Below are positions 9,738 through 36,600 of a stretch of 60,000 nucleotides of DNA, piece by piece. The position numbers and the translations under genes are program-made. Below the pieces are notes generated by a model. It made no database searches. It was not told where the DNA came from and saw only the letters and a program-made list of their open reading frames with translations. The stretch is taken from NCBI GenBank assembly GCA_965235115.1, contig OZ249436.1:8682001-8742000 (forward strand), given 5' to 3'. Origin of the DNA: Laetmonice hystrix. Lineage: Eukaryota. The stretch's first letter is position 1, and every line of letters begins with the position of its first letter.

Positions 9738-12700
9738 GTTAGTTGGAAGGGCTGATTGTATTATCATGAATTGCCTCCAATTCTGTGTGTGTATCCTCTG
9801 TGTCAGAAATCATGTTAATTCTTGGTTTATATTATTTTTCAGAACTGGCAAACCATGAGAAGAATATTAATCGTCTGATGCACAAGTACAATGCGTACAG
9901 AAAGGCAGCAGGGGTGATTGCCAAAGAAACAAGACGGTTAAAAAGTGGAGATGAGGCTAAAAAACTGGTATGGCCTATCTATGGGATGGGACTTTCTCTT
10001 TACAAGCATAACATTTCTGTAATAATGCTCATGCAGATCTATACACAAATGATTTAACTATCTATTTAATTCAAATATATTACATAATATTTTGAGAGTT
10101 TAGGTTGAATGCTGTAGCTGGCAGTAAAAATGAAATCTACCATACCATGGATGGTATAGGCCTACAAGTACAAGTACATTGTACAAGTATTTTGATGTAA
10201 GTTTGTTAGGCCCCAGTCACAGTGTGTTGTGTGTTGACATTTTTCACAGTTTTTAAAGAGCATATGCACCCCCCCCCCCCCCCCCCCCAGCATACAGTTT
10301 GTACATTGTTGAAAATGTTGAACCGCCCGAACATAGTAAAGGGTGTTGATAATGCATAAGAATTTATATCTCTCCAAAAATAGAAAAGCAGTACATAAAT
10401 GGCCAATAGAAACTTGAGACTCCTCCAATAATTTAGCTAACATCTTTCCACTGTATAAGTGTATTGTTGCACTGGGCATTCATATATATTTTCAGCCAGG
10501 GGTTGGTGAAAAAATTGGAAAGAAAATTGATGAGTTTTTAGCCACAGGAACACTGCAAAAACTTGAAAAGGTGAGTAAATATACTGACTAGGTGAGTAAA
10601 TATACTGACTATCTTCATAGATAGTCCAAGTCAGAGATTTCTTATAACAGAATATTAGTGTTAAAGTCAGATGTTTCTAAACATATTGAAATATGAGAAG
10701 CACAACTTATAAACTCAGTCAAATGTCATCAAGTAGACCATTGTCCACATTACAACTGTTAACTTTGCATGTTTCCATTTTTTTACTTTGGAAGATTCGA
10801 GCTAGTGACTCAAACCAAGCTATAAATCTCCTGACACGGGTTAATGGAATTGGGTAAGTCAAGCACCTTTTAAGCATATTTAGAGAAAAACATTGTTCAG
10901 AAACCTAAAGTGCATAGAGGAATGGGCTAAATCTAGACAGAAACTTTTTTTTATCATAATGCACAATAGTATTGTGATGCAGGTAATAAAAGGCCTATGT
11001 ACACCACAGAAGTGTTTGAAAGGATGATATGAGTCCCTATTACCACATAATGCATAAAGCATTTAATATAGATAGATAATTTTTTCAAGACCAAAACAAT
11101 TCCTTTTGATATAAATAGTGATTTTAATTTCCAGTCCCGTAGCTGCACAGAAATTTGTCTCAGAAGGGATCATGACCATTGAAGGTATGTCTTTAATATC
11201 TGCTGCTTCAGAGATCTGTATGGCACAGTAAAGAACTCAGGATTCAACAGAAAGCTTATTTACTGTTGTTTTCCTGATGCGGAACATTTTTATGTATTAA
11301 AAAATTCATTTCAGATTTGAGAAAAAACAAGGACAAATTGACACACAGCCAACAGATTGGTGTCAAGTAAGTTGAAATGTTGGAACACTTGCCATTAAAA
11401 AAAGAATATTTAACAATGAAATCATTCATTGCAGTTGATTTGTTAAAAAGGAAACATTTGTCCTATGATTGTAAATAAACACGAGTATTGAAGTTAAATT
11501 GCAATGAAAGATGTTGTGAAGTGTATTTCTTTCCCTGCAGTGGAAACGTAAGACTAGTAGAAACAGTTTGTAGCTCCAGACTTCATTCCTTCTTTATAAA
11601 CCTATTTACAGATACTTTGAGGACTTTGAAAAAAGGATTCCAAGGAAGGAGATGTTGAAATTGAAGGTGAGATTTATACTGACAAGATTTACCGGTAACT
11701 TGAAATTTGATCCATGTGTATAATGGTTTTTGCCACAGGAAAGTTTGCTTTAGAAACTCGCAATAAAATTTTCTTTCCTATATTACCTAATATTCCTTCT
11801 TGAATGTTCCAGGCTATCATTGTACAGGAAATCAGAAAGCTGGACCCAGATTACACAGCAGAGGTTTGTGGAAGCTTTAGAAGAGGTATTTATGTTTGTA
11901 ATCTTGCACAGGTAATATCATAGATTCTTCTCAGAATCCATCTTTTATGCTTTTCCAGGATCAGGTTTCCTTCAGCCATGTCCACCCAGAAGGGTTTAAA
12001 TAAGTAAAATAGAAAATTCTTTGAGAAGATGTTCCATATGTGTAGTGTCCACCCAGAAGGGTTTAAATAAATTATATAGAAAAAACTTTTGGGTGAGATG
12101 TTCCATATACATGTATTTGAATTTTGAAATGACAGTTCACAGACATAAGATTTATAAAGTTATCAACCTGCTATGTTTCTCTGATTACCTGAAGGTGCCG
12201 ATACTAGTGAGGATATAGATATCTTGGTCACACATCCAAGCTTCACCTCAAAGTCTGAAAAGAAGGTGAGAAGCTCTCAATAACTCATCTTATGGAGCAT
12301 TTGATGTTACACCAAACAAGAAATGTGTGCAATATTGCTGAAGATAAATCCTGAGATCCTGATATGACTAATTATACATTGTAATTCAATAAATCCCACT
12401 GGAATTTGTGCCAGCCTCTGGTTTAGTTATAACATTGCAAACTTGAACTTGCTGACCCTTGTTCAGTGTGTATACTACATTTTGTCTGTTGAAGCCTGAA
12501 CTACTGAAAGCTGTTGTCAAGTGCCTCGAGGACATCAACTTTATCACAGATAACCTGTCTCTTGGAGATTCAAAGTATATGGTAATGTAGGCTTGGATCC
12601 TTCTCTGAATATCACACATAAATGTATCATAAATATGGTAATGTAGGCTTGGATCCTTCTCTGAATATCACACATAAATGTATCATAAATATGGTAATGT

Positions 12701-33600: not shown

Positions 33601-36600
33601 TAGCACTGAGTTTGCAATGTCGTGTACCTGTGCATGTTGTAGTTCATAAGTGCTTTTCGCAGTGAAGTTTTTTCTTTGTTGGTCAGTAGATGATCTACCT
33701 TGTCCCGAAAGCTGTCCCCGTTCTGGTCTCGAGCCAAATCTTCGTCACCACCCAACCAACCGGACGACGAGACGTGCGACGACGCTGACGAGTCGTCCGA
33801 AGACTGACTTCCGGTCTGGTAAACAGGCACTGTTAATACAAAGGTCAGTGTCATTATAATGTTTGGGCAGACATTTACGTCGGCTCCAAGACTACATAGA
33901 AAGAAATGTAAACGCGACTGCATGCTAGACCTATGATAAGCCTATCATACTGGGATCCCGAGGTGCCCAGAGTTTGGGGGTTGCAACCCTCACGTTGGCA
34001 AACAATTCTTCTTTTTTTCTTTCTTTATGCAACACTCTGAATTGGTCCTGCTTGTCCTGCCTCTTATCCAGATTTCCCTCCCCCTCCCCCGTTTTCCAAA
34101 ACCCAGGTCCGCCCCTGGGTGTTGAAAGGAGGACGGATCTTTTAACGCCTGTTTTTATTATCTTTCGGGGGTTAAATTTACTGAGTGGACCGACCTGCTG
34201 TTTGAGCTCTTCCTGCTGAACCCTCGAGATCTATAGCCTATTGTCGCCATTCCCCGGTGGATTTCTATTACTGCTGGTTGGAGAAGATCTGGGCCCGGTT
34301 TCTTGGTGGAGCTTGAGCTGAAATTCTTGGCTCAAGCTCAAGGATTTGGAGCTTGAGCCAAGGATTCTCGGCTCAAGCTCAAATTTGGGTTTCACAGTCA
34401 TGTCCCAGCTCAAGCTCAAGCTCAACGGCCGTCTTACTGTGAAACCCAAATTTGAGCTTGAGCCGAGAATCCTTGGCTCAAGCTCCAAATCCTTGAGCTT
34501 GAGCCAAGAATTTCAGCTCACGCTCCACCAAGAAACCGGGCCCAGGAGGGGAACCCCCATCCCATACAGGAGCCTAGTGTCTATACCGCTCCCCGACTAC
34601 ATAAATTACATAAATCCAGAAATCCAAAACATAACTCAGATACCCTACAGTATAATTACTGTAGGGTATCCCCTACAGTATAATTACTGTAAGGTATCCC
34701 CTACAGTATAATTACTGTAGGGTATCCCCTACAGTATAATTACTGTAGGGTATCCCCTACAGTATAATTACTGTAAGGTATCCCCTACAGTATAATTACT
34801 GTAGGGTATCCCTACAGTATAATTACTGTAAGGTATCCCCTACAGTATAATTACTGTAAGGTATCCCCTACAGTATAATTACTGTAGGGTATCCCCTACA
34901 GTATAATTACTGTAAGGTATCCCCTACAGTATAATTACTGTAGGGTATCCCCTACAGTATAATTACTGTAGGGTATCCCCTACAGTATAATTACTGTAAG
35001 GTATCCCCTACAGTATAATTACTGTAGGGTATCCCCTACAGTATAATTACTGTAGGGTATCCCCTACAGTATAATTACTGTAAGGTATCCCCTACAGTAT
35101 AATTACTGTAGGGTATCCCCTACAGTATAATTACTGTAGGGTATCCCCTACAGTATAATTACTGTAAGGTATCCCCTACAGTATAATTACTGTAAGGTAT
35201 CCCCTACAGTATAATTACTGTAAGGTATCCCCTACAGTATAATTACTGTAAGGTATCCCCTACAGTATAATTACTGTAAGGTATCCCCTACAGTATAATT
35301 ACTGTAGGGTATCTGAGTTTTGTTTATACAAGGTAATCAGAAACAAGTCATACTGCCTTCCTCGTCGTAGACATGCTGGATCTGAAGTTTAGGTGACGAT
35401 CCGCTTCCCTGCAGTAATCTCACCACGTGGCTGTGGCTGCTGCGGCTATAGAAATTAACCATAAATAGCAGATCAGCCCCCTATCTCAGCTTTCTCCTTT
35501 CTCCTATATACATTACTTTGAATAATGCGCGCCAGTGTACCAGTCATTTCAAGCCAGTAGATCTAGGCCTATACACAGGCTACAAAGTGTAATTGATAGG
35601 GGCATACCGTATCATAATGTATAATAATGATGGATGAAATAGGATGACGCAGAATCGTTCGCCAATGTTCCTGTTTCACCCTGTAAGGATAAGCCTCTAG
35701 GCCCTATAATACCCGTATAGAAATTGGCTATAGGTCTATAAACTTACATGTCATAACACTCTCAGTTGAGTCGGGCACGTTTTAATGCGAGAGGCTTTAA
35801 TTTCCCAGAACTGAAAGCTCATATCTCTCCCCCGGAAGAGAATATAGATTAGTATCCATGCCTTCTATAAGACCTCCTGCCACCGTGTAACAGAGTGTAT
35901 TCGGTATTTACCTGACGTCGAGGCCGTTCAGTTTGAAGATGGCATCGCCTGGTGTAAGACCGGCTCTGTCGGCGGCACTGCCTGGGTTTACCGACTCGAT
36001 GTACACCGGGTCGTGTCCACGCAGAATAAAACCGAAACTCCCATTGCGACTCCGGTGAATCGTAACCTCCCTGCGTGTATGTGTGAAATGGGCATAAGAA
36101 CTTCAAGCAACCACGTGTGTTATAAAGGTGCTGATACTGCCTACATCAGTCCGTGGGCCCATCTTTCCTCATTCAAACCGTACAATTTGTGTTAATTTTG
36201 CACGTCACGTCTGAACATAAGAAACATATACTGGACCTATAGATTTCTCAAATTCCTGACCTATACCAACTTATATTTGATTTTGTTAACATTACGTTTA
36301 TACAATGCATGTGAATTTCGAAGTAAAATTTAATTTTCGACCAACAAGACACGTTTGAAGTTCCATATTTCAGTTAAAAAGAAGCCTGCAGCCTTGCACG
36401 TTATTGTCAGTTTGAGGTTAGACATGCATTTCTCTGTACCTGATTTGAATAACAAAACAAAACAATCCTGGTTTTCACAAAAATTAAAGCACTTATTGAT
36501 CTAACCAACGATGTTAACATTTCTATGTTTATGCAAATTCCTGTATTCTTCCGAATCTACACGAGGAGCCCGCCCATGGCTATTAAAAAACAACACCCCT

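Follow-up and report, generated by a model that had tools for sequence, protein, structure and literature searches.

Minisatellites that run across an exon–intron junction are already described as a type. In amphioxus they are called 'mirages', tandem repeats lying across the 5′ or the 3′ exon–intron boundary, with examples in Adh3, troponin C, the globins BflGb6 and BflGb9, and PGBD5; regular splicing is reported as unaffected, and the repeats are proposed as a source of new introns (PMC3087553, PMC3902484). Human F7 carries a variable number tandem repeat (VNTR) of 37 bp in intron 7, the first unit of which spans the boundary, and experiments show (PMC1557585) that the most upstream of the identical donors is selected. 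The Rogers model, as outlined in PMC3087553, derives intron gain from tandem duplication across an AGGT proto-splice site. This article examines eight arrays at or near splice junctions of two neighbouring genes of Laetmonice hystrix, namely POLB (DNA polymerase beta) and a delphilin-like gene, in a stretch of 60,000 nucleotides (the window; contig OZ249436.1, 8,682,001–8,742,000, from an assembly of 627 Mb in 35 contigs). The arrays are probably 'mirage'-type minisatellites that arose by ordinary local tandem duplication in once-short introns and were tolerated there. The window is a genuine case of a known repeat type, densely populated but otherwise ordinary, and targeting of duplications to junctions by a process coupled to splicing or transcription is not supported.

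Mirages and the present arrays have in common boundary-spanning tandem duplications, units of tens to about 160 bp, AG or GT kept in many copies, and gene-specific units. The present arrays differ from those of amphioxus in their spiralian host (the best POLB matches are to annelids and molluscs), in their very high density (seven junction-associated arrays in 25 kb) and in copy numbers of up to 34; moreover, three of the eight stand beside the junction instead of across it, and they are known here from sequence alone. Like the F7 VNTR, the donor-spanning arrays place a true donor ahead of identical pseudo-donors; F7, however, is a single locus in a long-intron genome, whereas many loci are concerned here, all read from genomic DNA only. 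Duplicated AG|GT junction pieces are also the raw material of the Rogers model. Unlike in that model, no new intron or exon is seen here; in orthologue alignments, the exons on the two sides of an array-bearing intron follow each other without a gap. A limited literature search found nothing on such arrays in annelids or other spiralians. The window illustrates the extent that a known curiosity can reach in a short-intron genome that is about 18% minisatellite: a housekeeping and a neuronal gene bear some 46 extra copies of their own donors, and several introns are mostly repeat.

Arrays were called with Tandem Repeats Finder (TRF), exons were mapped by tblastn with orthologues, by reading of splice sites and by Pfam, and the geometry at each junction was read base by base. 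The gene models are as follows.

9674..15768, plus strand: POLB gene, 12 coding exons, from tblastn with annelid and mollusc POLB proteins
10496-10570, 12495-12581, 14553-14754 and 15674-15768, plus strand: POLB exons 3, 10, 11 and 12, the last with the stop codon included
At least 18929..42455, minus strand: delphilin-like gene with two PDZ domains, a proline-rich exon and FH2, from tblastn with 12 long relatives, splice candidates, and Pfam PDZ and FH2
20972-20886, 24168-24047, 26201-26015 (predicted only), 31702-31557 and about 35445-35354, minus strand: array-adjacent exons of the delphilin-like gene

In POLB, Pfam HHH_8 and DNA_pol_B_thumb are matched on exons 3 and 11. The order of PDZ, PDZ, proline-rich exon and FH2 in the second gene is the delphilin architecture; its orthologues were gathered by a profile-free search with the FH2 exon, and a word-based homologue search with the PDZ exon gave no matches. 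The exon at 26201 is predicted from an open frame and splice motifs. The most exact junction is confirmed by Pfam, with FH2 profile positions 205–231 ending at 20886 and positions 232–275 resuming in the next exon. The exons beside all arrays are intact; on either side of every array-bearing intron they align with orthologous proteins from end to end, and none of the coding sequence is duplicated in the product (tblastn, Pfam).

The junction arrays, with the transposon that divides one of them, are listed below; negative boundary values lie on the exon side of the splice site.

10569..10611, plus strand: 21-bp unit, two copies, 100% identical; boundary at −2 relative to the donor of POLB exon 3 (TRF and reading)
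12576..12916, plus strand: 56-bp unit, 6.1 copies; boundary at −6 relative to the donor of POLB exon 10
12917..14219, strand not given: terminal inverted repeat (TIR) transposon of about 1.3 kb, sitting inside one unit of the 56-bp array
14221..14331, plus strand: two further 56-bp copies, which form the end of the exon 10 array and are separated from the rest by the transposon
14704..15467, plus strand: 85-bp unit, nine copies; boundary at −51 relative to the donor of POLB exon 11
20684..20884, minus strand: 66-bp unit, 3.1 copies; boundary at +1 relative to the donor at 20886, starting at intron base 2 (the T of GT)
22891..24053, minus strand: 35-bp unit, 34 copies; boundary at −7 relative to the donor at 24047
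26210..27068, minus strand: 68-bp unit, 12.6 copies; ends 8 nt upstream of the predicted acceptor at 26201
31692..32932, minus strand: 92-bp (and 59-bp) family; the last copy crosses the acceptor at 31702 and reaches 11 nt into the exon (−11)
34643..35313, minus strand: 28-bp palindromic unit, 24 copies; starts 40 nt past the donor at 35354, near the junction and not on it

The eight periods (21, 56, 85, 66, 35, 68, 92 and 28 bp) occur in 2–34 copies with 93–100% matches by TRF. Five of the eight arrays overlap a junction, four at donors (21, 56, 85 and 35 bp) and one at an acceptor (92 bp). In the other three, no unit spans the boundary: the 66-bp array begins at intron base 2, and gaps of 8 and 40 nt separate the 68-bp and 28-bp arrays from their splice sites. 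A first-pass annotation of the same DNA, made from the letters, had placed seven arrays at or overlapping exon–intron boundaries and an eighth, the palindrome, about 30 bp from a donor. TRF finds every array at the coordinates given there. The observation of seven holds, with five arrays overlapping a junction, the 66-bp array at the second intron base and the 68-bp array 8 nt short of a predicted acceptor; the palindrome is indeed near a donor, at 40 nt and not about 30. The exons are whole, as stated there; the arrays include exon sequence, for instance 51 coding nt in each 85-bp copy. The list of arrays was incomplete, the block at 14221–14331 being the tail of the exon 10 array beyond the transposon.

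Junction sequence is indeed amplified locally, and here the earlier proposal stands: the units carry exon ends with GT, or an acceptor with the start of an exon. The 21-bp unit consists of the last 2 nt of POLB exon 3 and the donor GTGAGT (AG|GTGAGT), which provides one extra donor; splicing there would lengthen the exon by 21 nt, the last three of which are an in-frame TAG. The 56-bp array provides five extra ATG|GTAATG sites. The 85-bp unit takes in the last 51 nt of POLB exon 11, then GTTAGT as the donor and roughly 34 intronic nt, and the array has eight extra donors, seven of them identical; a 16-residue peptide from this array is matched repeatedly by tblastn. In the 35-bp unit, the last seven exon nt (GTCTAAG) are followed by the donor GTAGGC, and there are 32 extra donor copies, most of them well preserved. 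The 66-bp array shares just TAAG with its donor; since it starts at the T of GT and its copies read ATAAG, it adds no GT. The extra donor copies in the 21-, 56-, 85-, 66- and 35-bp arrays accordingly number 1, 5, 8, 0 and 32, about 46 in total, which bears out the suggestion of decoy splice sites. At the acceptors, the 68-bp array has TGTGTCAG in 12 of 12 full copies and keeps CAG in 12 of 12. In the 92-bp family, AG is present at the homologous place in none of 14 upstream copies, all of which have CTG where the real site has CAG.

Genome searches with the 85-, 68-, 92- and 28-bp units (the copy counts from which are lower bounds) matched each only at its own locus. Three of the other four units (21, 56, 66 and 35 bp) contain the exon end of their own gene. 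Ten units were compared with each other and no match was found at E <= 0.01, in agreement with the earlier statement that the units are unrelated. The arrays make up 19%, 17% (plus 6% for the displaced tail), 83%, 59%, 90%, 68%, 64% and 44% of their host introns, in the order of the eight periods; the 83% refers to POLB intron 11, and the 90% to the intron with the 35-bp array. With shares of 17–90%, the idea that such arrays are a route to intron growth is upheld. They document directly how introns lengthen through local amplification, and they might supply material from which exons or introns could newly form.

In each 85-bp unit, the sequence AAG|G...CAG|GT encloses 45 nt that are free of stop codons and in frame with exon 11. 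Their inclusion by splicing would insert 15 residues in the polymerase thumb.

Reading on past POLB exons 3, 10 and 11, and past the delphilin exon that ends at 24047, leads to a stop codon, so use of an internal donor copy would give a truncated frame. The course of events may then be pictured as follows. A piece straddling or near an exon–intron border would be duplicated in tandem, at random and locally, in a short intron; the array would grow by slippage or unequal exchange; and selection would spare those duplications that do not disturb the outermost splice site. Splicing is predicted to use the first donor or the last acceptor only, and any transcript spliced at an extra donor would fall to nonsense-mediated decay. 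Tolerance of the arrays would rest on the predicted continued use of the genuine splice site that lies outermost. An earlier phrase, that expansions are 'tolerated until they hit an exon', fits insofar as selection would spare duplications that keep the outermost site, but not in its wording, as the arrays include exon sequence. Loci of this kind offer a natural setting in which to study how the spliceosome chooses among identical neighbouring sites.

The good preservation of extra donors (seven of eight identical in the 85-bp array, most of 32 in the 35-bp array) might be taken to mean that arrays are retained because additional splice-site copies are useful, for recruitment of the U1 small nuclear ribonucleoprotein to long introns or for tuning of splicing. 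The preservation of GT is uninformative in this respect, because the copies are 93–100% alike over the full length of the unit, which recent expansion and homogenisation would be expected to produce. One donor array (66 bp) carries no GT at all, the units are mutually unrelated, and mid-intron arrays without splice motifs are equally common; retention for usefulness is thus very improbable. A difference between donors and acceptors was also considered as a sign of selection and was dropped: the 92-bp family has lost AG in 14 of 14 copies, and the 68-bp array keeps CAG in 12 of 12, as do those copies that were read in a 59-bp acceptor array of KNTC1 (see below).

That the arrays are artefacts of assembly is scarcely credible. 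Reads came from three public runs of the same sample and were examined over 10300–27400; they are stored as short contigs that break inside the arrays, so copy number rests on the assembly, and this is what speaks for an artefact. On the other hand, array copies differ by point changes and indels, and independent short-read contigs run from unique sequence into array edges (20855–21431, 25736–26256, 15418–16789 and 21526–22927). Contig depth is raised in the bin 12584–13154, which holds most of the 56-bp array, and a transposon with its own inverted ends lies inside that array. The ends of this transposon are 26-nt inverted arms, 96% complementary; it has at least six genomic copies, this one included, at 95–100% identity, with a read depth of about six-fold. 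It looks like a young, apparently recently active insertion, and the 56-bp array must be older because the transposon splits it.

The contigs of all three runs also differ from the assembly by three intronic changes, namely a 49-bp deletion (22261–22311), an 11-bp insertion (13384) and a 6-bp insertion (21192), and by many single-base differences; they probably represent the other haplotype or another individual. Contig depth rises thousands-fold at 17152–18293 (between the genes) and in the bins 24004–24574 and 25146–25716 (in the delphilin-like gene); these bins mark high-copy dispersed repeats.

How many junction matches chance alone would give was estimated with a birth model, in which the extra copies and the known transposon are first taken out of each intron and a duplication of unit size is then put at a random position in what is left. 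The set comprised 11 locally born arrays; transposon-borne ones were excluded, the two 56-bp blocks were merged, and a 67-bp pair (see below) was added. Before expansion, six of the introns measured 162–271 bp and the others about 480–900 bp. Since these introns were so short, random duplications of 20–90 bp already predict 3.2 junction matches. Acceptor-spanning arrays are as frequent as the model predicts (1 seen, 1.44 expected, p = 0.80), and donor-spanning ones exceed it (4 seen, 1.44 expected, p = 0.04). The p-values from this model are uncorrected for the window having been chosen for its pattern. A different null, in which arrays slide along the intron and overlap with exons is forbidden, gives p of about 1e-6; it was rejected as unfair, since the mRNA is unharmed by a duplication that crosses a donor.

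Several results weigh against the view that ordinary duplication accounts for the arrays. Counting any junction, spanning or abutting, seven are seen and 3.21 expected (p = 0.01, uncorrected for the choice of the window). For arrays that span a donor or start at +1 to +3, the figures are 5 and 1.52 (p = 0.008), and for starts at −7 to +2 nt of a donor, an interval picked post hoc, 4 and 0.28 (p = 9e-5). Selection of the window for the pattern makes such p-values optimistic, though they are not nothing. Unseen old insertions could have inflated the pre-expansion intron lengths, in which case the true expectation would be higher; the reverse error is possible as well. In addition, the short-read contigs back the array borders only, copy numbers depending on the assembly. 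There is a residual local excess of about two-fold overall and about three-fold at donors, which can be judged only by a genome-wide, annotation-based count. Unless such a count exceeds the birth model, junction-anchored arrays in this genome are expected background.

The alternative that draws on this excess is a mutational process tied to the junction, which would set the duplication breakpoint at the border or within a few bases of it, so that arrays are made there above chance and not merely tolerated. R-loops, polymerase pausing at 5′ splice sites, nucleosome edges at exons and RNA-templated repair are candidates. Four of the five donor-spanning or donor-abutting arrays fall into the narrow interval just given for starts, and 1.28 array boundaries would be expected within 11 nt of a junction where six are found (p = 4e-4, again for an interval picked post hoc). 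In the 21-, 56- and 35-bp arrays, bases shared at the array edge permit a breakpoint exactly at the junction, and the KNTC1 acceptor array in the flanks likewise ends 2 nt into the exon. Against this, the intervals were picked post hoc in a window chosen for the pattern, other verified cases include larger exon parts (51 nt in the window, 21 and 30 nt in the flanks), and arrays that stop near a junction, at 10, 25, 40 and 41 nt, also exist. Taken together with the surveys of other regions described next, a junction-tied process is unlikely. The bolder form, in which splice junctions are birth hot spots for minisatellites owing to a break or template switch, coupled to transcription or splicing, a few bases from the border, is more doubtful still; if it were true, splice sites would set off their own amplification and thereby make introns grow throughout the lineage.

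Beyond the window, arrays with periods of at least 10 are as dense as within it: 139 cover 63,043 of 359,000 flanking bases and 25 cover 11,030 of 60,000 in the window. This part of the genome is extremely rich in such repeats, with 17–18% minisatellite. Whether donor-like motifs in the units sit preferentially at the array start was examined with a phase test that is free of annotation (threshold 4.5), run at periods of at least 20 and of at least 30. Its donor weight matrix was written from consensus frequencies and checked on 11 POLB donors. The test is noisy, since most motif matches are not real donors, and it is blind to long exon parts and to acceptor arrays. At periods of at least 30, the window itself gives five donor-motif starts with 2.2 expected. 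The 400 kb of unselected flank show no excess at these periods (9 seen, 13.5 expected), nor do four other regions of the same chromosome that had been preselected for the pattern (174 kb, 73 arrays; 20 seen, 19.8 expected). With all periods, there is no enrichment in flanks and window together (23 seen, 28.3 expected) or in the preselected regions (34 seen, 37.8 expected). The absence of a donor-motif excess in flanks and preselected regions, along with the 3.2 junction matches predicted by the birth model, speaks against the earlier proposal of splicing- or transcription-coupled targeting.

To find actual junctions in the flanks, 504 open frames adjoining the borders of the 139 arrays were screened against Pfam, with 11 frames that cross locus borders left out. 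Six frames have real domains; matches to HisKA_7TM and CheC are likely spurious. Three new arrays span a junction.

KNTC1 acceptor: 59-bp unit, 7.9 copies, including 2 nt of exon; CAG kept in the copies read
Glycos_transf_3 acceptor: 64-bp unit, 2.2 copies, including 21 nt of exon
Tudor-domain donor: about 30 nt of exon in the longer unit

Two of the three are at acceptors, so the donor excess seen in the window is not repeated in the flanks. Three further flank arrays stand 10, 25 and 41 nt from acceptors. In the preselected regions, the screen covered 150 of 405 frames, and two of the matches there are to cadherin. Over flanks and preselected regions alike, the yield is too low for an enrichment figure. 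In a Ret region, two arrays begin within about 10 nt past sites read as donors, and one array lies within an exon. Junction arrays are common along the chromosome, at donors and at acceptors, with exon parts of 2–51 nt. Neither the bias towards donors nor the nucleotide-level precision found in the window holds generally.

A putative Ret kinase exon (locus L041, 3444–3527) contains a frame-preserving in-exon repeat of 27 bp in 3.1 copies. The proline-rich exon of the delphilin-like gene similarly has a frame-preserving 12-bp repeat at 24672–24710.

The remaining arrays within the two genes are mid-intronic.

11979..12108, plus strand: diverged two-copy duplication of 67–69 bp in the middle of POLB intron 8
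28381..29161, strand not given: 199-bp unit in 3.1 copies, with 11-bp arrays, adjoining a high-copy dispersed element
30670..30756, minus strand: 45-bp duplication, 1.9 copies, 100% identical

The pair near 11980 had been noted earlier as a short mid-intron duplication; its position is right, and it is now described as a diverged 67–69-bp pair that TRF misses even at score 30. For the dispersed element beside the 199-bp array, 29271–29385 gave 982 first-look candidates.

Outside both gene models, arrays occur at 6183–6769 (59 bp, 9.9 copies), 44171–45263 (47 bp, 20 copies) and 48189–49096 (30 bp, 31 copies). An inverted pair of arrays with periods of 144, 154 and 310 bp occupies 55099–56142 and 57471–58397 and recurs about 113 kb downstream (L011, about 8806–9849, and L012, about 1178–2103); it looks like a large foldback-type element with at least two copies. 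At about 8,902,200–8,941,700 of the contig (L017–L020) lies a macro-repeat, left out of the counts, which has a period of about 860 bp with two 18-bp arrays per unit and extends over some 40 kb or more.

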